A stretch of 37,808 nucleotides of DNA, taken from assembly GCA_036257695.1 (NCBI GenBank), contig DATAFB010000131.1:1-37808 (forward strand). The letters run 5' to 3'. A program made the translations under genes and the position numbers. Shown in pieces: positions 6,127 through 35,570 of the stretch (positions are counted from its first letter, which is position 1; the number at the start of each line of letters is the position of its first letter). This stretch comes from Solirubrobacterales bacterium. GTDB lineage: Bacteria > Actinomycetota > Thermoleophilia > Solirubrobacterales > 70-9. The notes under the pieces are model-generated. The model made no database searches, was not told the origin of the DNA, and saw only the letters and a list, made by a program, of their open reading frames with translations.

Positions 6127-6375
6127 ATGGAAGCGGCAGTGACGACGGAGCGGGTCGAGAAGGTGATCTTCGACGGCCTCGCCGAGGTCGGCGCGGAGCG
6201 CGATCAGATCTCGCGCGGGGCGACGTTCGAGACGCTCGAGGTCGACTCTCTCGACCTGGTCGAGATCTCGCAGATCGTCGAGGACGAGTTCGGAGTCGAG
6301 CTCGAGGGCGACGACGTCAAGGACCTGAAGAACGTCGGCGAGGTAATCGACCTCGTGGTGGCGCGCTCGTCATGA
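6127..6375 (+). CDS. acpP: Acyl carrier protein
   Basis: 82 aa and acidic, with the phosphopantetheine site LEVDSLDLVE. A strong RBS (AAAGGAG) sits upstream of the ATG. Confidence 0.93.
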   Translation: MEAAVTTERVEKVIFDGLAEVGAERDQISRGATFETLEVDSLDLVEISQIVEDEFGVELEGDDVKDLKNVGEVIDLVVARSS

Positions 6376-22125: not shown

Positions 22126-22925
22126 GCCGAGCGTTCGGGGTCACCGCAGGGCTGGAGCGGGGAATCGCGGAGCCGCTCGCGGGACGCTGCCAGATGCTCG
22201 GCTACGAGTCGATGTGGTCGAACGACCACCCGGCGGCGAGCGGTCTCGACACGCTGGCCGCGTTTGCCCGGTCGGTGCCGGGGATCGATCTCGGGGTCGC
22301 GGTGCTGCCGCTGGATCGTCACTCCCCGCGCGAGATCGCACGCAGGATTCAGGAGCTCGGGTTGCCGCGCGAGCGGTTGTGGATCGGCGTGGGGGCGGGC
22401 TTCTCCGAGCGCCCGTTAACCCGGATGCGAGATGCGTTGCCAGCGCTGCGAGATGAGCTTCCCGATGTCCGCCTCGTGCTCGCCGCGATGGGACCGAAGA
22501 TGTGCTCGCTCGCCGGCGCCGCGTACGACGGCGCGTTCCTTAACTGGATGACGCCCGAGTTCGCCGCCGGTGCCCGCCGGCAGGTCCACGCCGGGGCGCG
22601 CGAGGCCGGCCGCAAGCCGCCGCCGGTGCTCGGCTACGTACGGGTCGCGGTCGGGCGCGACGCGCGGGAACGCCTGCTCAAGGACGAATCCTTCTATCGC
22701 GACCTTCACGACGGCTATCGCAGCCACTTCGCTCGGCTCGATGCGGAGCCCGGCTCCGTCGGGGTCGCGAGCGAGAGCCCCCACGCGGCGCATGCGGACC
22801 TCTCTCGTTACGAGGGACCGCTCGACGTCGTCGTGATCCGCGCGCTGGCGAGCGCGACACTGCGGGCGATGACGGCGCTCGCCGAGGCGGTTGCCCCGGG
22901 CGGCTCGGAGGCGCGGCTCACGTGA
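22122..22925 (+). CDS. Luciferase-like (LLM class) flavin/F420-dependent oxidoreductase
   Basis: I chose TTG 22122 (TTGA overlap with the rlmD stop), giving the N-terminus SRAFGVTAG typical of LLM proteins. GYESMWSNDH and the rest of the LLM fold pattern follow. Confidence 0.75.
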   Translation: MSRAFGVTAGLERGIAEPLAGRCQMLGYESMWSNDHPAASGLDTLAAFARSVPGIDLGVAVLPLDRHSPREIARRIQELGLPRERLWIGVGAGFSERPLTRMRDALPALRDELPDVRLVLAAMGPKMCSLAGAAYDGAFLNWMTPEFAAGARRQVHAGAREAGRKPPPVLGYVRVAVGRDARERLLKDESFYRDLHDGYRSHFARLDAEPGSVGVASESPHAAHADLSRYEGPLDVVVIRALASATLRAMTALAEAVAPGGSEARLT

Positions 22926-24412
22926 CCGCGCGGCGGGTGGCGCTGGTGGCGCGTCCGCTCGGCGTCGCGGCCGCGCTCCATCTCGCGGCGGCGGCCCCGT
23001 CCTTCGCCGCGCCGAAGCCCCCGCTCGGCCACGAAGGGCGCTGGATCACCGACGCCGCGGGGCGGGTCGTGATCCTGCACGGGTTCAACATGGTCTACAA
23101 GGTCGGCTCCTACCGCCCCGAGGACACCGGTTTCGGTCGCGACGACGCGCGCTTCCTGCACCGGCACGGCTTCAACACGGTTCGGCTCGGGATCATCTAC
23201 AAGGGCCTGGAGCCGAACCCGCCCGGGCCGGACGGCAAGCCGCGATACAAGCGCGGCTACCTGCGCAGCATCGCCCGCACCGAGCGCGCGCTCGCGAGGA
23301 GCAAGATCTTCACCCTGCTCGACTTCCACCAGGACCTCTACAACGAGCGCTTCGAGGGCGAGGGATGGCCCGACTGGCAGACGCTCGACGATGGACTGCC
23401 GGCGGAACCCGAGAACGGGTTCCCGACCAACTACCTGACGATGCCCGCGCTGCAGCGCGCGTTCGACCACTTCTGGGCCAACGACGCGGCGCAGGGGGTT
23501 TCGCTCCAGGAGGCGTACGCGCGCGCGTGGCGGGTGGTCGCGCGGCGGTTCGAGCGCCGACCCCGGGTGGCGGGCTACGACCTGCTCAACGAGCCGTGGC
23601 CCGGCTCGGTTTTCCCAGGCTGCCTCAACCCGGCGGGATGCCCCGCTTTCGACTCCGGCTCGCTGACCCCGTTCTCGAAGCGGACGATGAGGGCGATCAG
23701 GTCGGTGGACCGCACCACGATGGCCTTCTACGAGCCCAACGTCCTGTTCGACTACGGTGCGCGGACCTCGCACGGCGATACGGGCGACCGCCACGCCGGG
23801 TTCAGTTTCCATCCGTACTGCCTGCAGGGAGGGGGTGGCGTCGGAACGACATCGTGCGAAGACAACCTGCGTTCCGTGTTCCGAAACGCTGCCAACCACG
23901 TCGAACGGACCGGCGATGCCTCGCTGGTGACTGAGTTCGGCGCCACCGATGAGCTCGCTCGGATCCGCCAGGTGATCGACCTCGCTGACCGCCACATGGT
24001 GGGGTGGCAGTACTGGCACTACTGCGACTGCGACGACCCCACGACCGATGGTCCCGGGGTGCAGGCGCTCGTGATCGACCCCTCCGAACCGCCGCGCGGC
24101 GACAACGTCAAGCGCCCGAAGCTGAAGCTGCTGGCGCGGCCGTTCCCGCAGGCGGTCGCGGGAACCCCGACGCGGTACTCGTTCGATCCCGACGCCGGTG
24201 TCTTCGAACTCGTCTACTCGACGCGCGGCCCCGACGGTGACCGGCTCCCCCGCCGCGCGCAGACCGAGATCCGGGTGCCGAGGATCAACTTCCCGGACGG
24301 CTATTCCGCGCAGGTGGACGGGGCCGCAGTGACGTCCCGCGACGACGCACCGGTGCTGCGGCTGCGGCGGGAGCTGGGTGCGGACCAGGTCAGCGTGCTC
24401 GTGCGGCCCTAG
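22922..24412 (+). CDS. Secreted glycoside hydrolase family 5 (endoglycoceramidase/cellulase-like) with a C-terminal beta-sandwich domain
   Basis: GTG 22922 (GTGA overlap with the LLM stop). Signal peptide ends ...AAAAPSFA. GH5 acid/base LLNEPWPG and nucleophile VTEFGA are present, along with HGFNTVRLG and LLDFHQDLYNERF, as in endoglycoceramidase-type GH5. Confidence 0.8.
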   Translation: MTARRVALVARPLGVAAALHLAAAAPSFAAPKPPLGHEGRWITDAAGRVVILHGFNMVYKVGSYRPEDTGFGRDDARFLHRHGFNTVRLGIIYKGLEPNPPGPDGKPRYKRGYLRSIARTERALARSKIFTLLDFHQDLYNERFEGEGWPDWQTLDDGLPAEPENGFPTNYLTMPALQRAFDHFWANDAAQGVSLQEAYARAWRVVARRFERRPRVAGYDLLNEPWPGSVFPGCLNPAGCPAFDSGSLTPFSKRTMRAIRSVDRTTMAFYEPNVLFDYGARTSHGDTGDRHAGFSFHPYCLQGGGGVGTTSCEDNLRSVFRNAANHVERTGDASLVTEFGATDELARIRQVIDLADRHMVGWQYWHYCDCDDPTTDGPGVQALVIDPSEPPRGDNVKRPKLKLLARPFPQAVAGTPTRYSFDPDAGVFELVYSTRGPDGDRLPRRAQTEIRVPRINFPDGYSAQVDGAAVTSRDDAPVLRLRRELGADQVSVLVRP

Positions 24413-24438: not shown

Positions 24439-24618
24439 ATGGACCTCGAGGAGCGCTCGATCGAGGAGCTGCCCGACCGCTGTCAGAGCTGCGGGGCGCA
24501 GCTCACCGACGCCGAGAAGCAGGCGGCGCTGGAGTCCGGCCGCAGCCTGGTGCTGTGCACGACCTGCGCCGCAGAGCAGGTGCCGCTGGCGGACGACGTC
24601 GAGGAGCCTGACGTCTAG
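24439..24618 (+). CDS. 59-aa zinc-ribbon-like protein (not in the supplied ORF track)
   Basis: ATG 24439 to TAG 24618: MDLEERSIEELPDRCQSCGAQLTDAEKQAALESGRSLVLCTTCAAEQVPLADDVEEPDV. It has two CxxC pairs and strongly G/C-biased third codon positions, like the neighbouring genes. Confidence 0.55.
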   Translation: MDLEERSIEELPDRCQSCGAQLTDAEKQAALESGRSLVLCTTCAAEQVPLADDVEEPDV

Positions 24619-25271
24619 TAAGGCGGCAGCTCGTCGTACCACGCGCCGAGCGAGCGAAACGCGCCCCAGAACTCGCGCTTCGTGCCCTCCTCGTCGAGGG
24701 CCGCGTCGATGTCGGGGACGAACAGCGCGTCGACGGTCGGGGTCAGCGACTGCACCTCGCCGGGGTCGGGCTCCAGCCGCCGCGACAGCGGAACCTCGAG
24801 CTCGTTCAGCGTCTCCAGCGCGGGCTCGCCCATGACGACGACGATCCGCGGCGAGACGATCGCCAGCTCCTCGACCAGCCTCGCGACGCAACCCGGGTCG
24901 GCGAGCGCGGGATCCGACAGCGGGCACTTGACGCACAGCGTCCCGTACACGACCAGCGGGTCGATGCCCAGCCGCTTGAAGCTCTTCATCAGCGCGTTCC
25001 CGGCGCGACCGTAGAACGCGACGCCCTCCTCGACCTCGGCGGCGGTCGGAGCGTGCTTGAGCAGGACGACGTCGGCCTGAGGGTGGCCCGAGCCGAGCAC
25101 CGGCTGCAGCCTGCCGCGGGGGCATCCCTCGCAGGCCTGGAGCTCGCGGGTGAGGTCGTTGAGCTCGCGGATCGCCCGCTCCAGGTACTTCTCCTGGATC
25201 TCGTCGTCGGTCGTCGGCACAGTCCGGCCTCTCTTTGACGATCCGCGACCGGCTCCTGCGGAGTGCATCAC
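24615..25271 (-). CDS. Uracil-DNA glycosylase superfamily (family-4-like, Fe-S type) protein with diverged catalytic motifs
   Basis: Family-4-like layout: CEGC ... VLGSGHPQADVVLL ... FYGRAGNAL ... VKC ... GC. The start is uncertain: ATG 25271 overlaps the upstream stop, and GTG 25220 with an AGAGAGG RBS is an alternative. Confidence 0.7.
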   Translation of the reverse strand: MMHSAGAGRGSSKRGRTVPTTDDEIQEKYLERAIRELNDLTRELQACEGCPRGRLQPVLGSGHPQADVVLLKHAPTAAEVEEGVAFYGRAGNALMKSFKRLGIDPLVVYGTLCVKCPLSDPALADPGCVARLVEELAIVSPRIVVVMGEPALETLNELEVPLSRRLEPDPGEVQSLTPTVDALFVPDIDAALDEEGTKREFWGAFRSLGAWYDELPPY

Positions 25272-27262
25272 TTCTTGCCTCGGCGGTCCGTCCGTTTCAC
25301 CGATTGTCGCGTCGACGCCCTCCCCTGACGGCGGCCGCCGCGGACCGCCCGCGCCCGCTTCGCGGCCCGCGCGCGGCGGGCGGGACGCGGGCGGCCGGTC
25401 GTCTGCAGGAACTTCAGCGTCTGGACGTAGACGAGGTTCTTGCGCTTGTGGACGATGTCGGCGTCGCGCATCCCCTCGAGGAACTCCTGCGGCCCCTCGA
25501 ACTCGCTCAGTCTTATGCGGACGCTCCCGAGCCCCTGCGCGACGTGGCTGTCGGAGCCGGCGCCGGGGACGATCCGGTACTTGGTCGCGAACCGCTGCGC
25601 CTCCTCGTTAAACGACGACAGGGTGATGCGGGGGTTGAAGACCTCGAGGATGTCGATCTCGTCGACGAACTCGAGCAGGTGCTCGTAGTCGGGCACCGAG
25701 TGCATGCGATCGAACGGGTGCGGGACGTACACCAGCCCTCCCTGGCGCCGAATCTCCGCGATCGTCTCCGCCATCGTCATCCCGCGCGGGATCTCCTGCT
25801 CGAGGAAGAGACCGATCACCTCGCCCTCCTCGGCGGTCTTGATCTCCTCGGCGACGATCACCTCGATCCCGTCCATGCCCGCCGCCAGCTCGCGCGCCTC
25901 GAGCGCCCCCGAGATCACGTTGTGGTCGGTGATCGCGATCGCCCCCAGCCCGCGGTCGCGCGCCGTCTCGAGCAGCACCTCGACGGGGGTCGCCGAGTCG
26001 GGCGAGTGGTCGGTGTGCATGTGGAGGTCGCAGTGGATCGATGGCCGCGACGCGAGCCGGCGCCGGATCGCTGGGTTGCCGCGCGGATCGTGCCTCCGGG
26101 CGCAGATCTCGCGGTAGATCCCCGCGAGCCGCTCCGTCGTCGCCGCCCAGCTCGCGACGGCGTCGCGGCCGCGCCCGGCGAGCTCCGCGCGCAGCTCCGG
26201 GTCGGCGATCAGGCGCTCGACCTGGCCGGCGAGCGTGATCGCGTCGCCGGGCGGGAACAGCAGCCCCAGCTCGCCGTCCTCCGTCAGCTCCTCGTAGATC
26301 GGGAGGTGCGAGACCACTGGGACCGCGCCAGAGGCGAGCGCCTGGCGGACGATCCCCGGCGCCGGGAGCGAGCCTCCGGACGCCGCGCAGACGACGTTTG
26401 CGTCGGCGATCCAACGCTCGGGCGGGCCGTCCGCGGGGCCGACCAGCGATACGCGCTCGCGCAGCCCGCGGCTGAGACGCCGGGCGTACTCCGGCAGCCG
26501 CTCGGCCCACACGGTCGCCTCCCACTCGCGATCCGCCGGAAGGCGGCGCAGCGCGCGCAGGAACAGCCGCAGCGCGCCGCGCTCCTCGCGCAGGCAGAAC
26601 ACGATCCGGGGCGGCGCGTCGCGACTGCGCCGCGAGCCCGGTTCCGGGTCGGCGCCTGGCGGCACGAGCGCGTAGCCGCCTGGGAAGTAGCGGCCGACGA
26701 GCTCCCCGGTCCCCCGGGTGCTGACCGTCCTCGCGTCGAGGCGGCCGAAGAAGATCTCGACCAGCGGCCGCGCGACCTGGGTCGACAGCAACCGCTCGGT
26801 CGGCTCGTGGAAGCTGCCGACGTTGAGCGACCGCGAGTGGCGAAGCGCCGTCGAGGAGGTGCTGGGGACGAACGGGTCGTGGACGTGGACGACGTCGAGC
26901 TCGATCCCCCCGAGAAGCTGGTCCAGCGTGCGGCTGACGTCGAGCGGCACGGGCGCGACCCGCGGACGCGGGCCGCGGGGCATCGGGAGCCCCTGGCCGA
27001 CCGCGAGCACCGCCGCGCCGTCGGAGTCCCGCTCCGGGGCCAGCTCGAAGATCGAGTCCGGTTTTCCGTCGAGCGCGGTGCGGATCGCGCGCCTCGAGTC
27101 GCGGATCGCGGTGCGGGAATCGGACGGAGCCGCGACGAGCACCCGATGGCCGCGTTCGGCGAGCCCGGCGCTTACCTTCCGCACGAACTCGTTGACCTCG
27201 TGGTACGGGCCCCAGGTGTGCGGCGTGACGTGGGCGATCGAAAGGCGCTCGCGGCCGGGCAC
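25268..27262 (-). CDS. Fusion protein: GT4 (GT-B, PimA/MshA-like) glycosyltransferase domain + PHP-family phosphoesterase domain + basic C-terminal tail
   Basis: GTG 27262. Residues ~1-395 are GT4-like (IAHVTPHTWGPY...GHRVLVAAPS, ...ASGAVPVVS...GELGLLFPPGD). Residues ~410-620 are PHP (CDLHMHTDHSPDS, ITDHN, AEE, VPHPFD, GSDSH). The last ~45 aa are Arg/Lys-rich. Confidence 0.8.
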   Translation of the reverse strand: MPGRERLSIAHVTPHTWGPYHEVNEFVRKVSAGLAERGHRVLVAAPSDSRTAIRDSRRAIRTALDGKPDSIFELAPERDSDGAAVLAVGQGLPMPRGPRPRVAPVPLDVSRTLDQLLGGIELDVVHVHDPFVPSTSSTALRHSRSLNVGSFHEPTERLLSTQVARPLVEIFFGRLDARTVSTRGTGELVGRYFPGGYALVPPGADPEPGSRRSRDAPPRIVFCLREERGALRLFLRALRRLPADREWEATVWAERLPEYARRLSRGLRERVSLVGPADGPPERWIADANVVCAASGGSLPAPGIVRQALASGAVPVVSHLPIYEELTEDGELGLLFPPGDAITLAGQVERLIADPELRAELAGRGRDAVASWAATTERLAGIYREICARRHDPRGNPAIRRRLASRPSIHCDLHMHTDHSPDSATPVEVLLETARDRGLGAIAITDHNVISGALEARELAAGMDGIEVIVAEEIKTAEEGEVIGLFLEQEIPRGMTMAETIAEIRRQGGLVYVPHPFDRMHSVPDYEHLLEFVDEIDILEVFNPRITLSSFNEEAQRFATKYRIVPGAGSDSHVAQGLGSVRIRLSEFEGPQEFLEGMRDADIVHKRKNLVYVQTLKFLQTTGRPRPARRARAAKRARAVRGGRRQGRASTRQSVKRTDRRGKK

Positions 27263-27277
27263 CCGCGCAGGATAGAG

Positions 27278-28450
27278 CTACGTCTCGGCCTGCTCCGGCG
27301 CGAGCTCACGCGGCTGCTCGCGGATCGCGGTGCGCGCGTGGTCGCGAATGAACTCGTCGGTCATGTCGCGCGCGACGGGGTCGGGCCGCTGCGTGTGCGG
27401 AGACTTCATCAGGTAGCTGGAGGGCCCGTCGAGCTGGCCGGCGATGCCGTGGTTGAGCGCCAGCTTCACGATCCGCACGGCGTCGATCACGATCCCGGCC
27501 GAGTTCGGCGAGTCCCACACCTCGAGCTTGAGCTCGACCGTCAGCGGCACGTCGCCGAACGACTGCCCCTCGAGCCGGATGTGCGCCCACTTGCGATCTC
27601 CGAGCCACTCGACGTAGTCGGACGGCCCGATGTAGACGTTCGCGTCGGAGATCTCGCCGTCCATGATCGAGGTCACGGCGCGGGTCTTCGAGATCTTCTT
27701 CGACTCGAGCCGCTCGCGCTCGAGCATGTTGTAGAAGTCCATGTTGCCGCCGACGTTGAGCTGGCTCGTGCGCTCGATCCGCACGCCGCGGTCCTCGAAC
27801 AGCCGCGCGAGCTGGCGGTGGACGATCGTCGCGCCGACCTGCGACTTGATGTCGTCGCCGATGATCGGTAGCCGGGCCCGCATGAAGCGCTTGTTCCAGT
27901 AGTCCTCGCGGGCGATGAACACCGGCAGGCAGTTGACGAACCCGACGCCCGCCTTGATCGCCTGCTCGACGTACCACTTCGTCGCCTGCTCGGAGCCGAC
28001 CGGCAGGTAGCAGACCAGCACGTCGGTCTTCGTCTCCTGGAGGATGCCGACGATGTCGTCGGTCTCGCCCGGCGCCTTGGTGATCTTCTGCTTCAGGTAC
28101 TTGCCGAGCCCGTCGTGGGTCATCCCCCGATGCACCGGCACGCCCAGGTTGGGGACGTCGGAGAAGCGGATCGTGTTGTTCTGTCCAGCGAAGATCGCCT
28201 CCGAGAGGTCCTTGCCGACCTTGTCGGCGTCGATGTCGAACGCCGCGGTGAACTCGATCTCGCGGACGTGGTAGCCGCCGAGCTCGACGTGCATCAGCCC
28301 CGGCACCGTCTGGGCCGGATCGGCGTCGCGGTAGTAGTGCACGCCCTGGACGAACGAGCTCGCGCAGTTGCCCACGCCGACGATCGCGACGCGCACCTTG
28401 TCGTCGCGGTCCGGGGCGCCGTTTCCGTGGGCTCCGCCTGTCGTGCTCAT
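27278..28450 (-). CDS. ino1: myo-Inositol-1-phosphate (inositol-3-phosphate) synthase
   Basis: It follows the bacterial/archaeal Ino1 pattern closely: [59 protein letters not shown]. Confidence 0.92.
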
Positions 28451-28519
28451 CCGAGGGCTCCTCTCGCGGTTGGCCGTCTTATCACACCCGATCCGAGACC
28501 GGGTTACATAGCACGCCCG

Positions 28520-29182
28520 TCACACCTTCCTCGCCTCGGCGCCCTCCAGACCCGACAGCTCGCGCCGCACGTGCAACACGCGCTGCACGACCGTGATCGC
28601 GGTCAGGGCGCCCATCACGTAGATCGCGGGGGCCAGCAGCTCGACGTCGAAGATGCCGGCGCCCTTGGCGAAGACCAGGCCGATCGACAGGATCACCACC
28701 CGCACGGGCCGGCTCGCAAGCCCGACCTTGCACTCCACGCCCAGCGCCTCCGCCCGCGCGCGGGTGTAGGAGACCATCAGCGAGCTGAGCACGACGAGCA
28801 CGCAGGCCGCGGCCGCGATCTCGTCGCCGCGCTCGGCGAAGTACCACGCGACGGCCGCGAGCACGACACCCTCCTCGGTCCGGTCGAGGGTGGAGTCGAG
28901 GAAGGCGCCGAACAGCGTCCCCTTGCCCGACATCCGCGAGTAGCGGCCGTCGAGGGTGTCCATCACCGAGCCGACGATGAACGCCACGCCGGCGAGGAAG
29001 AAGAGGCGCTGCGTGACGAGCACCGCGGCGGCGAGGTTGAGCGCCAGGCCGGTGATCGAGATCGTGTTCGGCGTCAGCCGCGACTCGATCAGTGCCTCGC
29101 GCGCCATCGCGCGGAGCTCCTGGCCGCTGCGGGCGCGGCGGGGCGGGCGTCCGGTGCGGGTTGGGGGAGTCTCGATCGCCAT
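28520..29182 (-). CDS. CDP-alcohol phosphatidyltransferase (phosphatidylinositol-phosphate synthase-like)
   Basis: 220-aa membrane protein with the family motif D-x2-DG-x2-(A/S)R-x7-8-G-x3-D-x3-D (MDTLDGRYSRMSGKGTLFGAFLDSTLDR). Size and the position next to ino1 fit PgsA1-type PIP synthases. No cytidylyltransferase domain is present. Confidence 0.8.
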   Translation of the reverse strand: MAIETPPTRTGRPPRRARSGQELRAMAREALIESRLTPNTISITGLALNLAAAVLVTQRLFFLAGVAFIVGSVMDTLDGRYSRMSGKGTLFGAFLDSTLDRTEEGVVLAAVAWYFAERGDEIAAAACVLVVLSSLMVSYTRARAEALGVECKVGLASRPVRVVILSIGLVFAKGAGIFDVELLAPAIYVMGALTAITVVQRVLHVRRELSGLEGAEARKV

Positions 29183-29193
29183 CTCGCCGCCCG

Positions 29194-29982
29194 TCAGGCG
29201 GTGACCTCACCGGCCGGCTCGCGCTCCGACCCGGGCCAGGCCCAGTGGTAGGGGCGCAACGGGCTCAGCACCCGAGCGGCGATCAGCGCCGCGATGCTGG
29301 CGACGGCCGCACCGGCGGCGGCGTCGAACCAGTAATGGTTGGCCGTGACCACGATGACGAAGAACACGAGCGCCGGATACACCGACCAGAAGGTGCGCGA
29401 GGCGGCGTACTTGGCGAGCACCATTCCGGGTACCGAGATCATCAGGGCGAAGGCGATGTGCATGCTGGGGACCGCGGCGTACTGGTTGACAAGCAGCCCG
29501 ACCGCGCCCGTGTCCTGGTCGACGTTGGTTGCGATCGCGATCGTGTCCGTGAAGCCGGCCTCCGGGAAGAATCGCGGCGGCGCGGTGGGGAAGGTCGCGT
29601 AGCCGATCAGCGCAATCCCCATCGCGACCACGAACATGTTGCGGACGAAGTAGAAGTTGTCGTTGCGGGCCAGGTACAGCCACGCCAGGAACGCCGTCGT
29701 GATCACGAACTGGGCGTTGATGTACATGAAGTTCGCGGTGTCGATCAGCCACGCGTGGTCGAGCACCGCCTGCTGCAGGTTGGCCTCGAAGAACGTCCCC
29801 AGCGTGCGCTCCAGCTCGATGATCCGCTCCCCGTTCTGGAACGCGATCGCGACCTGGCCGTCGGCGAGCCCGCGGACGACCTGGTAGCCCTGGTAGACGA
29901 TCAGGAAGAGGGCGAACTGCCACAGCAGATCGCCCCACCCTCGCGGGAGGCGACGGCCGATGGATGAGACGACGGAGCGCAC
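29194..29982 (-). CDS. PAP2_C-type membrane protein (inositol-phosphorylceramide synthase/AUR1-like head-group transferase family)
   Basis: GTG 29982. Polytopic protein whose C-terminal half carries the paired motifs VPSMH and NHYWFD. These match the H/H/D catalytic signature of the IPC-synthase/sphingomyelin-synthase branch of PAP2. Confidence 0.7.
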   Translation of the reverse strand: MRSVVSSIGRRLPRGWGDLLWQFALFLIVYQGYQVVRGLADGQVAIAFQNGERIIELERTLGTFFEANLQQAVLDHAWLIDTANFMYINAQFVITTAFLAWLYLARNDNFYFVRNMFVVAMGIALIGYATFPTAPPRFFPEAGFTDTIAIATNVDQDTGAVGLLVNQYAAVPSMHIAFALMISVPGMVLAKYAASRTFWSVYPALVFFVIVVTANHYWFDAAAGAAVASIAALIAARVLSPLRPYHWAWPGSEREPAGEVTA

Positions 29983-29995
29983 GGGATGTTGCGGG

Positions 29996-30001
29996 ATTGT
30001 A
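29996..30001 (-). promoter_or_regulatory. Candidate -10 hexamer TACAAT upstream of the inositol operon
   Basis: Minus strand reads ...CCTCTTTACAATCCCGCAACATCCC-GTG. The A/T-rich hexamer lies 13 nt upstream of the first gene's GTG in otherwise GC-rich DNA. No clear -35 was found. Confidence 0.3.
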
Positions 30002-30036
30002 AAGAGGACCGAACGGCTCTCAGCGCCCGTTTCGTT

Positions 30037-30854
30037 TCAGCGCGCGTCGAGGAACGCGGCGACGCGGTCGACGACGTCGGGGCGCTCTAGCCACGGCCAG
30101 TGGCCGGCGTCTTCGAGCTCGACCAGCTCGGCGTTGGGGAGGACGCGGGCGTAGTCGCGGGCGAACCGTGCCGGGAGATAGGGATCGCCCGTCCCCCAGA
30201 CGACCAGGGCGGGGCAGGTGAGCTCGCTCTGCCGCGAACCGGCAGTCCCCAGGGTGGCCTCGTCGGCGGAGCGGTACAGCTTGAGGATCGCCCGCCGGGT
30301 GCCGCGGTCGTAAGTCTCCCAGATCATGTCGATGAACTCGCTCGGCATCGGCCCGCGGTCGGCGCGAGCCTGGCGCATGCCGAGCGCGAACCCGGCGCGA
30401 GTCGAGGTCGCGTTCACAGCTTCCCCGATCCACCGGCGCCGCCACAGCCGCGCGACCAGTGCCACCGGTAGCCCGGGAGCAGCGGGACCACGTCGATGAT
30501 CACCAGCCGCCGGACCCGCTCCGGGTCTCGCTGCGCCGCGATCAGCGCGACGACGCCCCAGTCGTGGACGACCAGCTTGTGCTCGTCGATCCCGACGGCG
30601 TCGAGGAACCGGTTCACGAACGTGGCGAGGCCGTGCATCGTGCCGTCGAATCGCTCCGGCCCGGGCCGCTCGGATCGCCCCCACCCCGGCAGGTCCAGGG
30701 CGATCGCGGGACCGCCGACCCGGTCCAGGAACGGGATCCAGTCAGCGGAGTGGCTCGGGTTGCCGTGCACGAACAGCGTCGGCACTCCCTCTCCGGGCTT
30801 GCGGCGAAGGAACGTCCGCACGCCGTCGACCTCGACCGTCGCCTTCTCGATCAC
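30037..30854 (-). pseudogene. Alpha/beta hydrolase (haloalkane-dehalogenase/epoxide-hydrolase-like) interrupted by a 1-nt frameshift near 30454-30455
   Basis: The N-terminal half (VIEKATVEVDGVRTF...LFVHGNPSHSADW...VVHDWG...GYRWHW) ends in one frame. The C-terminal half (ARLWRRRWIGEAV...VVWGTGDPYLP...DAGHWPWLERPD) continues in another. Inserting one base after TGG (56-58) restores ...YRWHW-x-ARLW... Confidence 0.75.
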
Positions 30855-30878
30855 GGTGGCGCACCATATCCTCGCCGC

Positions 30879-31604
30879 GTGGCGGTCCGAGCGTGGAAAC
30901 GGCCCTCGAAGCGCCGGGTGCGCGCGATCCGGGACCGGCTGCGCGAGATATACGGCCGGCCGACTCAGGTCCCGCATGGCAATCCGGTCGAGGAGCTCGT
31001 GCGCACGATCCTGTCGCAAAACACCAACGACACCAACCGCGATGTCGCGTACGCCCGGCTGCGGGAGCGCTTCCCCACCTGGGAGGAGGTGCGCGCCGCG
31101 CCGCTGGACGAAGTCGCCGAAGCGATCCGGCCCGGGGGGCTGGCGCCGCAGAAGGCGCCGCGGATCCAGGCCGCGCTCCAGGACATCACCAACCGCGCGA
31201 CGCCCGGACGCGGAGCGGAGGACGTCGCGCGCCCTGATTCCTTGGACCTGTCGTGGCTGAAGGACGCTCCCCGCGAGGACGCGCTGGCCTTCCTCGTCTC
31301 GCTGCCCGGCGTGGGGCGCAAGACGGCGGCGTGCGTGCTGATGTTCTCGTTCGGCCGGCCCGAGATCCCCGTCGACACCCACGTCTACCGGGTCGGCGGC
31401 CGGCTGGGATTGTTCCCCTCCAATGCGTCGTTCGAGCTCGCCCACGACGAGATGCGCGCCATCACCGACCCGGCCGACGCGTACGAGCTGCACATCAACC
31501 TGATCCGGCATGGTCGCGCGGTCTGCCGGCCGCGCCCCCGGTGCGAGGAATGCGCGCTACGACGGATGTGTCCATACTGGCGCGGCCTGGCCCGTCCGCC
31601 TTAG
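30879..31604 (+). CDS. nth: Endonuclease III (HhH-GPD DNA glycosylase with Fe-S cluster)
   Basis: ILSQNTND, HhH LPGVGRKTAACV, catalytic VDTHVYRV, and C-terminal Cys ligands CRPRPRCEECALRRMC. The start is taken as GTG 30879 (uncertain; GTG 30918 is an alternative). Confidence 0.85.
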   Translation: MAVRAWKRPSKRRVRAIRDRLREIYGRPTQVPHGNPVEELVRTILSQNTNDTNRDVAYARLRERFPTWEEVRAAPLDEVAEAIRPGGLAPQKAPRIQAALQDITNRATPGRGAEDVARPDSLDLSWLKDAPREDALAFLVSLPGVGRKTAACVLMFSFGRPEIPVDTHVYRVGGRLGLFPSNASFELAHDEMRAITDPADAYELHINLIRHGRAVCRPRPRCEECALRRMCPYWRGLARPP

Positions 31605-31693
31605 CGGCGTCGGCGGCGGGGCTCAAGCCTGTCCTCAGGCGGCCGATAGCCGATCGCGCCGGGCCCCCACCTGCCCGCAATCCCCGGCATGGC

Positions 31694-32746
31694 ATGCAGC
31701 GGGTACGCTCCGCCCGGACGATGGATCGGATAACCGGACGCCGCACACGAGCGACTCGTGCCGTCCTTCTGACCCTGGGGGTCGTTCTCAGCGCGCTGCT
31801 AACCGTCTCGGCACCGACGGCCGAGGCTGGGGGCAATCCCTGGATCGTGCGTGAACCCCTCAACATCGCCCATCAGGGCGGGGAGGACGAGTTCCCCTCC
31901 AACACGCTGTTTGCGTTCAAGCGCGCGCTCCGAGCCGGGGCGGACATGCTCGAGCTCGACATTGGGGTGACGAAGGACGGAAAGGTCGTGGTGATGCACG
32001 ACACCAGCGTGGACCGGACCACCAACGGCCACGGGTTGATCGCATCGAAGACGCTGAAGCAAATCAAGCGCCTGGACGCCGCGTATTGGTTCTCAAAGCA
32101 AGGTCCGGATCACTACCAGCACGGACTCCCGCGTCACGCATATCGGTTTCGCGGCATCGCCACCGGGAAGAAGCGGCCGCCGAAAGGTTTCAAGGCCGGC
32201 GACTTCAGAGTGCCGACGCTGCGGAAGGTGCTCCGAGCATTTCCGGACACGCCGATCAACATCGAGATCAAGGGCCGCACCGAGGCCGAGGAAACGGATG
32301 AGTACCTGGAGAACGCCGAGGTTCTGGCCGCTCTTCTGAGTAAGTTCAAGCGGCCTGACCTGATTGTCGCTTCCTTTCGGCAGCAAGCCGTGGAGCTGTT
32401 CCACGAGCTTCTGCCTCGAATCGGGCTGTCGCCCGGAATCGACGGGTTTGCCAACTGGTTCCTGACCGGCGGATCACCGGGTGCGGGGGTCGTGGCCTTC
32501 CAGGTCCCGATCACGTTCGAGTTCGGCGGGCAGCTGCTCCAGATCACGACGAAGGACAGCGTGGCCCAGGCACATGTGGACGGGTACGCGTGGCACAACT
32601 GGTTCGGCGGTGCCGACCGTGACGACCCACCCACCTGGGCGACGCTGATCGAATACTGCGTCAACGGCATCATGACCTCACGGCCGAAGAAGCTCGAGAA
32701 GGTGCTGCGCTCGCATCCCGCGCCGGAATCGTGCCCAGACAGTTGA
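31694..32746 (+). CDS. Secreted glycerophosphodiester phosphodiesterase (GDPD family)
   Basis: NIAHQGGEDEFPSNTL, ELDIGVTKDGKVVVMHDTSVDRTTNG and INIEIK. A signal-like N-terminus has an RR motif (GRRTRATRAVLLTLGVVLSALL). ATG 31694 or ATG 31721 could be the start. Confidence 0.85.
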   Translation: MQRVRSARTMDRITGRRTRATRAVLLTLGVVLSALLTVSAPTAEAGGNPWIVREPLNIAHQGGEDEFPSNTLFAFKRALRAGADMLELDIGVTKDGKVVVMHDTSVDRTTNGHGLIASKTLKQIKRLDAAYWFSKQGPDHYQHGLPRHAYRFRGIATGKKRPPKGFKAGDFRVPTLRKVLRAFPDTPINIEIKGRTEAEETDEYLENAEVLAALLSKFKRPDLIVASFRQQAVELFHELLPRIGLSPGIDGFANWFLTGGSPGAGVVAFQVPITFEFGGQLLQITTKDSVAQAHVDGYAWHNWFGGADRDDPPTWATLIEYCVNGIMTSRPKKLEKVLRSHPAPESCPDS

Positions 32747-32792
32747 CGGGGAGGCGGGAGTGAACCCGGGGATCGAGTAGGTTTGCGGAGCG

Positions 32793-33638
32793 ATGAGGCG
32801 GGTGGGAAGTCGGGGTAGCGACGGTGCCGCACCCTCACGATTTACCCGCGCGCGCGGCCTGGTCCTGGTAGTAGCGTCGTTCGCCGCAGGCGCGGCGGTG
32901 ACGACGGCGATCGCCGGGGAAAAGGGGACGTCGTCGAAGTCGCCGATCGTCTCCGTTCGGCCCACGGGGGTTGGACTGCCGGACATTGGGGCAAGCGAGA
33001 ACTTCGGCGTTCCGAAGTTGGCGGAGATGATCAGGGCCTACCACGACTCGGGGCGCTTCGAGGCCGACCTGAAGGAGATCGGTGAGCGGGCCCGGCGGTA
33101 TCTGCGCAAGCAGCTCATGCGATTGAACTACAACCGCAGCAAGGGCACCTACCAGAAGTGCGCGCGGAAGCGGGGCAGGCGCAAGTGCAAGACGATCAGA
33201 CCGGCCCTGGTACTGGACATCGATGACACCGCCCTGTCGCGGTACGCGGATCTGAACGCGGTCGACTTCGACTACAGGGGCGTGGTGATCGCTGTGGCGG
33301 AGGCCGACTCGCCCCCGATCCAGCCGACGCTGGAGCTGTATCGGTTCGCAATCGAGCGCGACGTCAGCGTCTTCTTCATCACAAGCCATCCTCCGGCGAT
33401 TCGCTCGTTGACCGAGGGCAATCTACGCAAAGCGGGATACGCTCAGTGGAGCGAGCTGGTGATGAAACCACCGGAAGCCAATGTCCTCGAGTTCAAGAGC
33501 GGCGCGCGCGAGGAGATCGAAGGTGAGGGCTTCACGATCCTGGCGAACGTCGGGGATCAGGAGAGCGATCTGGACGGAGGACATTCGAAGAAGGCGTTCA
33601 AGCTCCCCAATCCGATGTACTTCATCCCCGCCGACTAG
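32793..33638 (+). CDS. Secreted HAD-superfamily class B/plant-type acid phosphatase
   Basis: Signal peptide, then the DDDD-type motifs LVLDIDDTALS and NVGDQESDL, with a C-terminal PNPMY. Confidence 0.8.
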   Translation: MRRVGSRGSDGAAPSRFTRARGLVLVVASFAAGAAVTTAIAGEKGTSSKSPIVSVRPTGVGLPDIGASENFGVPKLAEMIRAYHDSGRFEADLKEIGERARRYLRKQLMRLNYNRSKGTYQKCARKRGRRKCKTIRPALVLDIDDTALSRYADLNAVDFDYRGVVIAVAEADSPPIQPTLELYRFAIERDVSVFFITSHPPAIRSLTEGNLRKAGYAQWSELVMKPPEANVLEFKSGAREEIEGEGFTILANVGDQESDLDGGHSKKAFKLPNPMYFIPAD

Positions 33639-33761
33639 CAGCGAGTCACGTCGCATGTCCCGTTGTTGCGAGGGCCCCCACCGGCCGGGCGGGATGGCCG
33701 CCGTGCTGGTCGCGGTCGGACCACGGTGGAGTAGTGAGCAGACTGCAGCTCAAGAAGTAAC

Positions 33762-33844
33762 TCAAGTCAATGATCAGCCGGCCGGCGTGCCCGCCGGCAC
33801 ATACCCCCCGGCGGGCCGGGGCCCGCGACACCCCGGCCCGCCGC
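33762..33844 (+). repeat. Copy A of an ~85-nt double-hairpin repeat
   Basis: TCAAGTCAATGATCAGCCGGCC, then hairpin 1 (GCCGGCG-TGCC-CGCCGGC, 33781-33798), then ACATACCCC, then hairpin 2 (CGGCGGGCCGGGG-CCCGCGACA-CCCCGGCCCGCCG, 33809-33843). It ends 40 nt before the phoD-like ATG. Confidence 0.85.
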
Positions 33845-33884
33845 ACTTGCGGCCAGGTAGTACCTCGAGCCGCCGCGATCGCAC

Positions 33885-35570
33885 ATGAAACCTGGCCTTG
33901 GCTTAAGACGTGTAGACTCGCGGCCCTTGCAGGGTGGGAGGGTCGCTTTAGTTCTCGTCGTGAGCGCCGTCGCGGCGCTCGCGATTCCGAGCGCGGCAAA
34001 CGCCGCCAAGTTCACCTTCGGCGTGACCGCGGGCGAGATTACCTCGAAGTCTGCGCGCATCTGGGGTCACGCAACCAGTAAGGGGAAGGTCAAGGCGGAG
34101 GTTGCGAAGGACAAGCGCTTCCGCAAGCTCGAGGACAAGGCGAAGGTCAAGGCGAAGAAGTCCAAAGACTTCACGGTCCAGAAGACGATGCGGGGCCTGA
34201 AGCCGGGTAGGAAGCACTACTACCGCTTCTGCAAGGGCAAGAAGTGCAGCGAGCGGGGCACCTTCGAGACCGCGCCGAAGCCGAAGCGCTCGAAGACGAT
34301 CAGGTTCGCGTACTCGGGCGACACGGATGCAAACCCAACCGCTGGCGAGACGGAGCCGTTCTGGGGTCACATGCTCGCCTTCAGGTCGATGCTGGAGGAG
34401 AAGAACGACTTCAACATCCACATGGGCGACACGATGTACTCCGACTCCGAGGTGCCGGAGCCCGGGCCGCTCGCGCTCACCCGGGCGCAGAAGTGGGCGA
34501 AGTACAAGCTCAACCTCGGCGAGCCCAACCTCACCAAACTGCGCAGGTCGGCCGGCTTCTACAGCCACTGGGACGACCACGAGTTCATCAATGACTTCTC
34601 ACCCAACCAAGACAGCTTCACCCCCTCGGGATTCGCCGAGCCGATCACGCTGGACGGAGAAAAGATCTACAAGGCCGGCCAGCAGGCGTTCCGTGACTAC
34701 GCGCCGGTCACGTTCAACAAGAAAGAGGGCATCTACCGCACCTTCCGGTGGGGCAAGAACCTGCAGCTGTTCTTCATCGACGAGCGCTCGTTCCGCTCCG
34801 CCGAGGCCTGGGTGGGAGGAACGTGCGACAACCCCGCGACGGGGCTCCCGGACCTGGCTCCGACGATGCCCCCGAGCCAGCGGACGTTCTTTTCGGTACG
34901 CGTCCCGTCGCTCGCCGAGCCGGTCTCCCAGGCCTGCAAGGACGCGATCACCGACCCGAGCCGGACGATGCTCGGCAACCGCCAGTACAAGCGGTTCGTC
35001 GACGACGTCGACGACTCGAAGGCGCGCTGGAAGCTGGTCGTCAACGAGATGCCGATCCAGCAGATGTACACGGGGGTGCCGTTCGACAACTGGGAGGGCT
35101 ACGCCTTCGAGCGCGTCAAGTTGCTCGAGGAGCTTCAGGCCCGGGGCGTCGATCGCCTCGCCTTCCTGACCACCGACGTGCACGGAGCGCTGGAGAACGT
35201 GATCCGCCTGCGGACGTGGCCGGACGACGTGGCGCCAAGCAACGCCCCGGCGCAGCCGCAGGACACGCCATACCACGACCACGTCGTCGGTCCGGTGTCG
35301 ACGAAGACGTTCTGGGGGGAGGTTGACGATGAACCCGGGGTTCCCGAGAACTCGGGCGCTCTCGTCTCGGAGCTCTTCTTCACGCCGCCCCCGACGCAGA
35401 ATCCGTCAGGTGGCGGCCTCGGAATGTCGTGCGACCAGGGTGGCGTCAACAGCTACGCCGAAGTCACGGTCAGCAAGGAGTCCGTGACGATCGAGTACAA
35501 GGATGAGAACGGCGGACCGGTCCTCGATACCAGCGGCAATCAGTGCGGTCCATACGTGCTTTCGGGCTAG
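33885..35570 (+). CDS. phoD: Secreted PhoD-like alkaline phosphatase/phosphodiesterase
   Basis: Signal peptide and a PhoD_N-like domain (FGVTAGEITSKSARIWGH...YYRF...GTFETAP). The metallophosphatase core includes WDDHEFINDF. Confidence 0.85.
   Translation: MKPGLGLRRVDSRPLQGGRVALVLVVSAVAALAIPSAANAAKFTFGVTAGEITSKSARIWGHATSKGKVKAEVAKDKRFRKLEDKAKVKAKKSKDFTVQKTMRGLKPGRKHYYRFCKGKKCSERGTFETAPKPKRSKTIRFAYSGDTDANPTAGETEPFWGHMLAFRSMLEEKNDFNIHMGDTMYSDSEVPEPGPLALTRAQKWAKYKLNLGEPNLTKLRRSAGFYSHWDDHEFINDFSPNQDSFTPSGFAEPITLDGEKIYKAGQQAFRDYAPVTFNKKEGIYRTFRWGKNLQLFFIDERSFRSAEAWVGGTCDNPATGLPDLAPTMPPSQRTFFSVRVPSLAEPVSQACKDAITDPSRTMLGNRQYKRFVDDVDDSKARWKLVVNEMPIQQMYTGVPFDNWEGYAFERVKLLEELQARGVDRLAFLTTDVHGALENVIRLRTWPDDVAPSNAPAQPQDTPYHDHVVGPVSTKTFWGEVDDEPGVPENSGALVSELFFTPPPTQNPSGGGLGMSCDQGGVNSYAEVTVSKESVTIEYKDENGGPVLDTSGNQCGPYVLSG

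Follow-up and report, generated by a model that had tools for sequence, protein, structure and literature searches.

The minus-strand gene set PAP2_3, PIPS, Ino1 and GT4::PHP, found in the window (the whole stretch of 37,808 nt that was analysed), may well serve phosphatidylinositol (PI) biosynthesis in a soil actinobacterium of the order Solirubrobacterales (class Thermoleophilia), a reading that we consider evenly balanced on sequence grounds. The fusion of a PimA-like module with a PHP phosphoesterase domain could be tested as the enzyme turning phosphatidylinositol-3-phosphate (PIP) into PI, for which Actinobacteria still have no assigned protein; a paper of 2019 (PMC6506517) spoke of the actinobacterial PIP phosphatase as “yet-unidentified”, and a preprint of July 2026 as “as-yet unidentified”. 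According to a 2026 preprint, the mycobacterial PIP phosphatase would be a protein in physical association with PimA, which is the same logic as that of the PimA-like::PHP fusion. In the lineage itself, Conexibacter woesei has PI as its main polar lipid (PMC3035278), and both PI and PIM have been reported in Solirubrobacter, the PIMs by TLC (PMC10722151).

The coordinates of the open reading frames confirm the four-gene minus-strand cassette of an earlier sequence-only reading, with intergenic gaps of 11, 69 and 15 nt (Table 1). The family assignments of that reading agree with Pfam for the PIP synthase, Ino1 and the GT4::PHP fusion; its label of PAP2_C for the first gene was rejected, as the protein matches PF14378 (PAP2_3, AUR1/IPT1 family) at E=9e-41 and gave no Pfam match to PAP2_C at E<0.01. 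In the fusion, Glyco_transf_4 and Glyco_trans_1_4 span residues 24-366, and PHP and PHP_C residues 412-600. All four genes have a coding-type GC3 of 0.94-0.97. The promoter-like site ahead of the cassette, a consensus match only (9/12 positions), is the sole match in 6.8 kb, against 0.2 expected. A haloalkane-dehalogenase-like alpha/beta-hydrolase gene, frameshifted in the window, lies upstream of the cassette, and an EndoIII-like gene and a tRNA-U5 methyltransferase gene are located near it.

Table 1. Features of the cassette and its surroundings (positions in the window)
Feature	Position	Strand	Remarks
PAP2_3 membrane protein	29194..29982	-	262 aa; Pfam PF14378
PgsA1-type phosphatidylinositol-phosphate synthase (PIPS)	28520..29182	-	220 aa; Pfam CDP-OH_P_transf
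Ino1 (myo-inositol-1-phosphate = D-Ins-3-P synthase)	27278..28450	-	390 aa; Pfam Inos-1-P_synth
GT4::PHP fusion	25268..27262	-	664 aa; Pfam Glyco_transf_4 + Glyco_trans_1_4, PHP + PHP_C
Fusion, N-terminal PimA-like GT-B (GT4) module	26078..27262	-	aa 1-395
Fusion, PHP/PHP_C metal-dependent phosphoesterase domain	25397..26041	-	aa 408-622
Fusion, polybasic C-terminal tail	25271..25396	-	aa 623-664
UDG-superfamily (family-4-like) gene	24615..25271	-	Pfam UDG E=3e-12
Promoter-like site just 5' of PAP2_3 start	29996..30023	-	CTGAGA-16-TACAAT

Ino1 and PIPS very probably make PIP. Ino1 matches Pfam Inos-1-P_synth at E=8e-37 and aligns with TIGR03450 over the whole profile length at 558.6 bits (cutoff 638). 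PIPS matches Pfam CDP-OH_P_transf at E=1.5e-14 and has M. tuberculosis PgsA1 as its best PDB match (6h53, E=5.5e-20); against the NCBIfam PIPSynth and AIP synthase models it scores about 132 bits, under their cutoffs of 170-180. It carries the CDP-alcohol signature D-x2-DG-x2-SR-x8-G-x3-D-x3-D and matches all residues of the PgsA1 Ins-P pocket, namely R94, S132, K135 (R here), R137, R152, R155 and R195; with signature and pocket both kept, the Ino1-to-PIPS-to-PIP logic proposed earlier is borne out. Based on established family chemistry and these conserved residues, Ino1 would turn glucose-6-phosphate into D-myo-inositol-3-phosphate, which the PgsA1-type synthase would then join with CDP-diacylglycerol to form PIP.

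No part of the fusion is better conserved than the PHP domain (47-56% identity), an intact phosphoesterase domain in which each of the nine metal-ligand positions checked is retained in 42-43 of 43 sequences: D412, H414, H416, D446, H447 and E473 are invariant (43/43), while 42/43 have H515, D571 and H573. Its profile matches the TrpH-type structures 3e0f, 7ug9 and 2yb1 in two blocks that are near-contiguous in the fusion and about 100 aa apart in those structures; the TrpH insertion subdomain is therefore absent. The nearest solved PHP relatives, matched at E=3e-7 with a single sequence and 1e-14 with a profile, are nucleotide/RNA phosphoesterases of the RNase AM and pAp-phosphatase types, and no PHP enzyme with a lipid head group as its substrate is known to us. 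In the third step of the proposed mechanism, the PHP metal centre would hydrolyse the 3-phosphate monoester of PIP to yield PI; that the domain is a PIP phosphatase has, in our estimate, the same chance of being right as of being wrong. The fusion has no transmembrane segment and ends in a tail of 42 residues with 19 K/R and 1 D/E, variable among relatives and partly of low confidence in the AF2 model (residues 643-664, pLDDT <50). The whole chain reaches a pTM of 0.85, which indicates a defined two-domain assembly. The PimA-derived GT-B module and polybasic tail may anchor the soluble protein on the anionic membrane, where they would offer up the PI(P) head group.

The GT module resembles PimA by sequence (4n9w/2gej, the best PDB sequence match, E=5e-14), by profile (hhalign probability 99.9% over 355 columns) and by fold (top Foldseek match, TM 0.80-0.82). 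It is present in all full-length relatives examined and, with 57-86% identity among close relatives, is under purifying constraint. These features, together with the PIMs of Solirubrobacter the equivalents of PimA H118 and R201 kept in 38/43 sequences and the E282-equivalent glutamate of more distant clades, speak for a bifunctional fusion, as the sequence-only reading had it in a channelled route from PIP through PI to glycosyl-PI: the PHP domain would dephosphorylate PIP and the GT4 module would be a working PimA converting PI into PIM1, or PIP would be glycosylated first and its phosphate removed afterwards. The latter is the usual order for GT-phosphatase pairs; SPS-SPP and TPS-TPP are well-known examples of such fusions and pairs. 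However, G15/G16, R196, K202 and E274 of PimA are conserved nowhere in the family; across the 43 sequences, their equivalents are H/E, C (R in 3/43), G, and L/R/gap (with E outside the six commonest residues listed), respectively. In place of E282 the window protein has Q; the glutamate occurs in 11/43 sequences and is kept in more distant clades. Where the PHP domain is 47-56% identical, the much faster-evolving GT halves are 17-38% identical; of all regions, the donor-binding C-terminal half evolves fastest and shows the lowest conservation (17-29%), the opposite of the usual pattern in active GT4 enzymes. Missing hallmarks and a fast-evolving donor half make glycosyl transfer, and with it the channelled route, questionable despite the PimA-like fold; mannosyl transfer by the fusion is doubtful, and a bifunctional enzyme of this kind seems unlikely. 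We lean slightly towards a GT module that is non-catalytic or non-canonical: the residues that canonically bind GDP-mannose have been lost from it in this lineage, and it probably does not, or does not any longer, work as a conventional mannosyltransferase. Given the constraint on the module and the E282-equivalent glutamate in distant clades, it could be an unusual but active transferase.

A second suggestion of the sequence-only reading, MshA-type soluble chemistry, in which the GT4 module uses inositol-phosphate as its acceptor and the product is dephosphorylated by the PHP domain to a glycosyl-inositol such as GlcNAc-Ins or to a compatible solute, fares worse and appears very improbable. 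Ino1 lies directly upstream of the fusion in most loci, MshA and BshA are among the fold matches (TM ~0.67-0.73; 0.67-0.69 for the closed form of MshA), and, to our knowledge, the MshA2 phosphatase likewise has no enzyme assigned to it. However, the PDB sequence search gave no match to MshA at E<0.01, PimA is clearly the better fold, and the donor-site residues required for any nucleotide-sugar transfer are not conserved; in addition, PIPS directly abuts the fusion in locus L086, with no Ino1 in between, and the window holds no mycothiol genes.

The PIP-to-PI reading of the fusion is consistent with its neighbourhood. Among 80 Thermoleophilia loci, Ino1 accompanies the fusion in 75, PIPS in 71 and PAP2_3 in 69, with strand and order unchanged, and the full order PAP2_3-PIPS-Ino1-GT::PHP is found again in about 70 of 80 Solirubrobacterales/Thermoleophilia genomes; the arrangement is thus no chance juxtaposition. 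The PIPS-Ino1 pair is never interrupted in the Thermoleophilia loci; between Ino1 and the fusion, 21 of the 75 have unrelated genes, part of them on the opposite strand. Two loci (L033 and L039) have neither PIPS nor Ino1 within 8 kb upstream of the fusion, and a third (L027) has just an Ino1 fragment at its far edge. The survey that had been proposed for the fusion with ino1 and pgsA1 finds co-occurrence down to distant fusions of 36-41% identity, where PIPS lies upstream in all six contigs with upstream sequence. No other phosphatase gene was found as a constant cluster member in the relatives' loci. Since unrelated UDG-like and tRNA-U5-methyltransferase genes are also conserved beside the cluster, much of this synteny may reflect vertical inheritance inside one class. 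The UDG-like gene is the tightest and most constant neighbour: it adjoins the fusion in 76 of 78 loci, the gap having a median of -4 nt. As listed (from 25271), it overlaps the fusion stop codon, and a GTG at about 25220, with GAGAGG ahead of it, may be its real start; the co-directional unit probably continues past the fusion into this gene. Its score is far under the NCBIfam family-4 cutoffs, the GE(A/G)PG motif reads KHAPT, and its alignment to 1ui0 ends before the expected position of motif B; by sequence, the protein is without the family-4 catalytic motif.

The PAP2_3 gene is probably a frequent yet dispensable accessory encoding a head-group transferase, although transferase activity as such is proposed only tentatively; in the proposed mechanism this AUR1-like protein would probably move inositol-phosphate from PI to a hydroxyl acceptor, a plausible role. 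The protein has four hydrophobic segments (AF2 model pLDDT 80), and across 89 sequences PSMH (H175), NHYWFD (H216, D220), PPR137 and VRN114 are invariant. Its best fold matches are the IPC synthases 9vj4 and 9ivc, weak at E ~0.01 and TM 0.42. Alternatively, PIP would be dephosphorylated by PAP2_3 itself, much as PGP is by the PAP2 enzyme PgpB, with the fusion and the UDG-like protein acting on a nucleotide or nucleic acid and the proximity of PIPS and Ino1 being inherited gene order. PAP2_3 indeed lies right beside PIPS in the Thermoleophilia loci (median gap 39 nt), a second copy sits beside PIPS in both loci inspected where this gap is large, and the PAP2 superfamily includes lipid phosphate phosphatases, PgpB and LpxE being among the fold matches; the tight fusion-UDG-like linkage, the nucleotide- and RNA-acting relatives of the PHP domain and the nearby EndoIII-like and tRNA-U5 methyltransferase genes point the same way. 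However, PAP2_3 is missing from the cluster in four of six distant relatives, which keep PIPS by the fusion; the phosphatase motifs KxxxxxxRP and SRxxxxxH were not seen in the conserved pattern of the 89 sequences, and the best family and fold matches are transferases. Locus L092, from one of the distant lineages, has PIPS-Ino1 upstream of the fusion and lacks the otherwise constant UDG-like gene downstream, and neither the missing TrpH insertion subdomain nor the UDG-like protein, without its catalytic motif, favours such a role; it would also leave the PimA-like module without a reason. We regard it as quite unlikely. The whole mechanism, with the fusion at the PIP-to-PI step, stands in our judgement midway between doubt and acceptance.

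Among known systems, yeast Aur1/IPC synthase and Ipt1 belong to the same Pfam family, PAP2_3, and the Aur1/IPC synthases share with the protein here the H...H-x3-D triad and provide its best, if weak, fold matches; unlike yeast Aur1, it has no Kei1-like partner here. Ceramide is not known as a lipid of the Solirubrobacterales lineage. TrpH/YciV-type PHP proteins (RNase AM; Cv1693, a 3',5'-bisphosphonucleotide phosphatase; 3e0f) are the closest solved PHP domains, at low similarity, and have the same metal-ligand motifs; Cv1693 cleaves a phosphomonoester on a ring hydroxyl, chemically similar to the PIP 3-phosphate. By comparison, the domain here lacks their insertion subdomain of about 100 residues and is fused to a GT-B module in a lipid-synthesis context. 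In Bacteroides thetaiotaomicron, BT_1522-BT_1526 likewise cluster MIPS (BT_1526), PIP synthase (BT_1523) and AUR1-like PAP2 (BT_1522) functions (Heaver et al. 2022, PMC9246714), together with a dedicated PgpA-like PIP phosphatase, BT_1525 (PMC9246714). The present cassette has no PgpA-like gene, the PimA-like::PHP fusion being proposed in that role; its PAP2_3 scores 22.7 bits against a cutoff of 480 with the NCBIfam phosphoinositol-dihydroceramide synthase model, and no sphingolipid synthesis genes were seen within the window.

The mycobacterial PI/PIM operon (pgsA1 - patA - pimA - Rv2609c) shares with the cassette a PgsA1-type PIP synthase, a PimA-like GT-B gene within the same cluster and a two-step route via PIP. 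In mycobacteria, pimA lies in one operon with pgsA1. In contrast to that operon, the cassette includes Ino1 and an added PAP2_3 gene and is without the PatA acyltransferase and the Nudix/LemA gene, and the GG loop, R196, K202 and EX7E motif of PimA are missing from its GT module. While the candidate phosphatase here is a covalently fused PHP domain and not the alpha/beta-hydrolase EphE, the coupling to PimA proposed in 2026 for the mycobacterial phosphatase matches the fusion.

The minus strand of the window carries four closely spaced genes encoding, in order, an AUR1-like membrane protein (PAP2_3), a PgsA1-type phosphatidylinositol-phosphate (PIP) synthase (PIPS), an inositol-1-phosphate synthase (Ino1) and a glycosyltransferase fused to a PHP domain (GT::PHP); the four reading frames and their gaps of 11, 69 and 15 nt are present exactly as described in an initial, sequence-only reading. 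Pfam agrees with the families given there to the last three genes (CDP-alcohol transferase, Ino1, glycosyltransferase fused to PHP), while for the first gene the description as AUR1-like stands and the label PAP2_C gives way to PAP2_3, the AUR1/IPT1 family. All four frames show the third-position G+C of real genes (GC3 ~0.95; 72% G+C for the window), and a promoter-like site lies just 5' of the PAP2_3 start.

Features of the window and, in the last five rows, of related genome loci (L handles)
Feature	Coordinates	Strand	Product or match
PAP2_3 gene	29982..29194	minus	262 aa; Pfam PF14378
PIPS gene	29182..28520	minus	220 aa; Pfam CDP-OH_P_transf
Ino1 gene	28450..27278	minus	390 aa; Pfam Inos-1-P_synth
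GT::PHP fusion gene	27262..25268	minus	664 aa; Pfam GT4-type residues 24-366, PHP and PHP_C 412-600
UDG-like gene	24615-25271	minus	UDG superfamily, family-4-like
Endoglycoceramidase homologue	22922-24412	plus	signal-peptide-like N-terminus
Alpha/beta hydrolase	30037-30870	minus	haloalkane-dehalogenase-like; two frames
ORF divergent from the cassette	30890-31604	plus	C-terminal part EndoIII/HhH-GPD-like by eye
Phosphate-scavenging-type run	31253-35570	plus	GDPD, class-B acid phosphatase, PhoD-like phosphatase
Type-II fatty-acid synthesis genes	3511-7580	plus	Pfam Acyl_transf_1, ACP_syn_III, short-chain dehydrogenase/KR, ketoacyl-synthase
Lgt gene	744-1526	minus	prolipoprotein diacylglyceryl transferase
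L025, duplicate PAP2_3 adjoining PIPS, with large membrane protein	4085-5176 and 5160-5984
L044, duplicate PAP2_3 adjoining PIPS, with large membrane protein	3431-4834 and 4898-5911
L087, separate PHP protein	15327-16016	minus	229 aa; PHP/PHP_C
L091, ORF between Ino1 and fusion	6404-6886		160 aa; no Pfam match
L092, ORF between Ino1 and fusion	2233-2715		160 aa; no Pfam match

Together, Ino1 and PIPS very probably make PIP, and this part of the sequence-only logic is upheld by established chemistry as well as by the conservation in PIPS of the catalytic signature and the inositol-phosphate pocket. The best PDB match of PIPS is M. tuberculosis PgsA1 (E=5.5e-20); the other solved PIP synthases come next. 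PIPS harbors the CDP-alcohol signature D-x2-D-G-x2-A-R-x8-G-x3-D-x3-D in the stretch DTLDGRYSRMSGKGTLFGAFLDSTLD, which aligns to PgsA1 D68...D93 with one A to S change; all seven positions of the PgsA1 pocket (R94, S132, K135, R137, R152, R155 and R195; PMC6506517) are matched in the HMMER alignment, K135 being replaced by R. PIPS is equally placed between the NCBIfam models for bacterial PIPSynth (132.4 bits, cutoff 170) and for the synthase of the archaeal counterpart AIP (132.7 bits, cutoff 180) and, since ~132 bits falls under both curated cutoffs, is a divergent member. Ino1 matches Pfam Inos-1-P_synth (E=8e-37) and scores 558.6 bits, against an equivalog cutoff of 638, over profile positions 1-355 of 355 of the actinobacterial model TIGR03450.

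Conexibacter woesei has phosphatidylinositol (PI) as its main polar lipid (PMC3035278), and PI plus its mannosylated form (PIM) are reported in Solirubrobacter (PMC10722151). Conversion of PIP to PI, their major lipid, then requires a phosphomonoesterase. The PIP to PI step has been an acknowledged actinobacterial gap since the pathway revision of 2010; its enzyme, which the sequence-only reading rightly called unassigned, was still unidentified in 2019 (PMC6506517) and in a July 2026 preprint, where the mycobacterial candidate is the alpha/beta hydrolase EphE, put forward on a predicted complex with PimA. Only in Bacteroides is the enzyme assigned, as the PgpA-like BT_1525 (PMC9246714), and no gene of that type occurs among the window genes scanned or the related loci examined.

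With each GTDB species represented by a single genome, a scan yields 190 relatives of the fusion. Synteny was counted in the best 80 of these, nearly all of them labelled Thermoleophilia or Solirubrobacterales MAGs (other homologue names are likewise Solirubrobacterales), with neighbour genes located by tblastn using the window's proteins as queries. In this co-occurrence survey, which had been proposed along with the sequence-only reading, Ino1, PIPS and PAP2_3 stand on the same strand as the fusion and in the window's order at 75, 71 and 69 of the 80 loci, respectively. The PIPS to Ino1 pair is never interrupted; Ino1 and the fusion are tightly spaced (<=150 nt) in 49 of 75 cases and split by >500 nt in 21, PAP2_3 and PIPS are tight in 45 of 69, and the fusion and the UDG-like gene are adjacent in 76 of 78, with a median gap of -4 nt. 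The genes found between Ino1 and the fusion look unrelated, some lying on the opposite strand, and were treated as insertions rather than pathway members; one encodes a secreted protein without Pfam match, and others, read by eye, a GMC-type oxidoreductase and an opposite-strand sigma/anti-sigma pair.

Because synteny inside one order can be plain inheritance, distant fusions (35-41% identical), drawn from an all-against-all search of the representatives, were also examined. Six of these contigs include sequence upstream of the fusion; PIPS stands just ahead of the fusion gene in every one, Ino1 in five and PAP2_3 in only two. PIPS, Ino1 and GT::PHP thus form the durable core, and PAP2_3 is a frequent accessory, dispensable to the cluster in several lineages. 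At L091 and L092, in the lineage without a UDG-like gene 3' of the fusion, a small ORF separates the fusion from Ino1. In public metagenomes, the fusion has matches among at least 7,900 protein clusters defined at 90% identity, and among 467 clusters at 50% identity with E<1e-30.

The PHP domain is the sole phosphoesterase that consistently travels with PIPS and for this reason is proposed as the PIP 3-phosphatase, an assignment to which we give an even chance. All nine PHP metal-ligand positions checked are kept throughout the family (D412, H414, H416, D446, H447 and E473 in 43 of 43 members; H515, D571 and H573 in 42). The nearest solved relatives are the TrpH-type 3e0f, RNase AM (7ug9) and 2yb1, which we take to be the nucleotide bisphosphate phosphatase Cv1693. 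In TrpH/YciV-type proteins, an insertion subdomain of ~100 residues between the barrel halves contributes to nucleotide binding; it is absent from the fusion, whose profile segments 8-74 and 91-169 match 3e0f residues 15-80 and 184-264. To our knowledge, no PHP-superfamily enzyme acts on a lipid head group. Alternatively, PAP2_3 would be the phosphatase, and the fusion and the UDG-like protein would jointly act on a nucleotide or nucleic-acid substrate, as favoured by the very close linkage of their two genes and by the PHP domain having nucleases among its relatives. We regard this as improbable: PAP2_3 is missing from four of the six distant clusters, the PHP half has no TrpH insertion, the PimA fold of the other half is left without a role and, at L092, the gene 3' of the fusion is not UDG-like, yet PIPS and Ino1 stand upstream.

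Stand-alone orthologues of the PHP domain were sought as a test of the phosphatase role that would not depend on the fusion, but two (P0243 and P0258) lie on contigs of only 0.8-1.3 kb with no usable context. A third candidate, P0222, has a fragmented locus and is read as a broken fusion gene because a 162-aa piece of Ino1 and a 246-aa piece of GT4 are among its neighbours. In L087, a distant relative, the gene for the separate PHP protein lies 5 kb 3' of the fusion, and its product is possibly a free-standing paralogue of the domain.

No neighbour of the fusion is more constant than the UDG-like gene, whose start codon, as listed, overlaps the fusion's stop; an alternative GTG, with a Shine-Dalgarno-like GAGAGG, lies ~50 nt downstream. 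The UDG-like product may not be a uracil-DNA glycosylase: the GE(A/G)PG catalytic motif reads KHAPT, the match to the T. thermophilus enzyme ends before the expected motif B, and several Cys are visible. Upstream of PAP2_3, the alpha/beta hydrolase (HGNPSHSADW and VVHDWG motifs) is interrupted by a frameshift near 30456, after 'GYRWHW', reflecting either an assembly error or a pseudogene; intact versions of 272-274 aa occur at the related loci L004 and L026. As a counterpart of EphE it was set aside: the Asp nucleophile (HDWG) is kept, but the gene is frameshifted here and was detected, with its C-terminal half as query, in only 42 of 80 loci.

Beyond the hydrolase, the HhH-GPD-like ORF diverges from the cassette; at the distant loci L093 and L094, an HhH-GPD gene is likewise found upstream of the cluster. 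G+C falls to ~64% across 32-35 kb, within the phosphate-scavenging-type run. Envelope and lipid genes abound in the window, among them the Lgt gene and the fatty-acid synthesis genes; a small ORF between the latter probably encodes ACP.

The N-terminal 395 residues of the fusion form a GT-B fold whose top match is PimA, whether by sequence (E=5e-14), hhalign (probability 99.9%) or structure (TM 0.80-0.82). PimA is the GDP-Man:PI mannosyltransferase of family GT4; in mycobacteria its gene lies in an operon with the PIP synthase gene, and the PimA-like module is here encoded beside PIPS. MshA has no sequence match to this half at E<0.01, and its fold scores TM 0.67-0.69 in the closed form and lower in the open one, below PimA. 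Residue patterns were counted across the 43 fusion-family members.

Functional positions of PimA, including those that bind GDP-mannose, and their equivalents in the fusion
PimA	Window	Family
G15-G16 (diphosphate-binding loop)	H21-E22	H in 29 and E in 29 of 43
R196	C223	R in 3/43
K202	G229	G in 27 of 43
E274 (EX7E)	L299	R in 20, gap in 8, L in 5; E absent from the six commonest residues listed
E282 (EX7E)	Q307	E in 11/43, mostly distant clades
H118	H152	kept in 38/43
R201	R228	kept in 38/43

In the window's protein the EX7E motif, the GG loop, R196 and K202 are thus all lost. The donor-binding C-terminal half of the GT module is also the fastest-evolving part of the fusion, sharing 17-29% identity with the distant relatives; in the N-terminal (acceptor) half this identity is 24-38%, and in the PHP domain 47-56%. 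On these grounds, the odds lie slightly in favour of a non-catalytic or non-canonical module, a canonical GDP-mannose transferase being unlikely. R228, next to the lost K202, might substitute for it, and clades keeping the E282 equivalent may retain some transferase activity. A fully bifunctional channel, in which the PHP domain dephosphorylates PIP and the GT4 half glycosylates the resulting PI, had been the first proposal of the sequence-only reading; the PimA resemblance and the PIM reports in Solirubrobacter are in its favour, but the missing donor-site residues weaken it and we now hold it to be unlikely. Its other proposal, soluble chemistry of the MshA type, is very improbable, given that PimA outranks MshA by sequence and fold and that the donor site is degenerate.

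Rather than a transferase, the PimA-derived module could be a docking element. The fusion has no transmembrane segment, and of the 42 residues in its C-terminal tail 19 are Lys/Arg and one is acidic; module and tail would serve for docking at the anionic membrane and for binding of the PI(P) head group, and the PHP domain would remove the 3-phosphate of PIP to give PI. The confident AF2 model of the fusion (pLDDT 87, pTM 0.85) implies that the two halves hold a defined arrangement relative to each other.

PF14378, the family matched by PAP2_3 (E=9e-41; 140 bits, gathering cutoff 27), is the Pfam family of Aur1 and Ipt1. Relatives of the window's protein conserve PSMH and NHYWFD (carrying the H/H/D triad of PAP2-type enzymes, here the invariant H175, H216 and D220), PPR and VRN, a pattern in which the phosphatase motifs K-x6-RP and S-R-x5-H are not seen. 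In a fold search the IPC synthases 9vj4 and 9ivc rank first but weakly (E ~0.01, TM 0.42), followed closely by LpxE, SMSr and PgpB; a PDB sequence search with PAP2_3 gives no match. At 22.7 bits against a cutoff of 480, PAP2_3 is not an equivalog of the bacterial phosphoinositol-dihydroceramide synthase (NF052609). The most economical reading, tentatively held, is a head-group transferase using PI as donor for a putative acceptor. One possible acceptor is ceramide freed by the neighbouring secreted endoglycoceramidase homologue, which resembles the Rhodococcus enzymes (5ccu, E=5e-51; 2osw, E=4e-30), lies ~0.2 kb beyond the UDG-like gene and occupies the same place in 24 of 80 loci. No sphingolipid-synthesis genes are found among the window genes scanned; a secreted enzyme of the ceramide-releasing type stands close to an AUR1-like gene. 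A second PAP2_3 match occurs in 22 of 80 loci, and most loci in which PAP2_3 and PIPS are not tightly spaced have one. In both loci examined (L025 and L044) the duplicate adjoins PIPS and is accompanied by a large polytopic membrane protein without Pfam match, with which it may form a further lipid-modifying module.

Taken jointly, the PHP domain as the PIP 3-phosphatase of Thermoleophilia, the PimA-derived transferase turned into a PI(P)-recognition and docking domain, and PAP2_3 leading to an undescribed inositol-phospho-X lipid make up a reading to which we assign somewhat less than even odds. The long-standing gap between PIP and PI gains a concrete, clonable and simply testable candidate from an actinobacterial order that ranks among the most abundant in soil. 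If the proposal is true, the PHP superfamily would extend to lipid substrates, with this as its first known such enzyme, a glycosyltransferase fold would have been re-used as a lipid-binding module, and the "missing" actinobacterial, possibly archaeal, PIP/AIP phosphatase would have a non-homologous answer. The protein would also be a natural "Rosetta stone" fusion, independently supporting a physical coupling of PIP dephosphorylation to PimA in Actinobacteria; such comparative support for phosphatase-PimA contact bears on mycobacterial PI/PIM synthesis, which is discussed as a drug target (PMC6506517). The searchable literature, which includes few subscription journals, holds no prior description of a PimA-PHP fusion, a PHP-type PIP phosphatase or Thermoleophilia inositol lipids, in line with the sequence-only view of an undescribed variant; the "Lipocone" preprint, which mentions a PHP domain and inositol, is unrelated to the cassette.

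Two known systems come closest. Like the cassette, the mycobacterial pgsA1-pimA operon has this synthase together with a PimA relative, while the candidate GT::PHP phosphatase is absent from mycobacteria; by comparison with the EphE-PimA proposal, the same coupling logic would operate here in a sister class, through a covalent fusion and an unrelated catalytic fold. The Bacteroides BT_1522-1526 cluster has the same three functions plus its own PgpA-like phosphatase. The window's cassette differs from both by an AUR1-like gene in an actinobacterium without an evident ceramide pathway, and by a PHP domain that occupies the place expected of the phosphatase and is joined to a PimA-like module whose donor site is degenerate.
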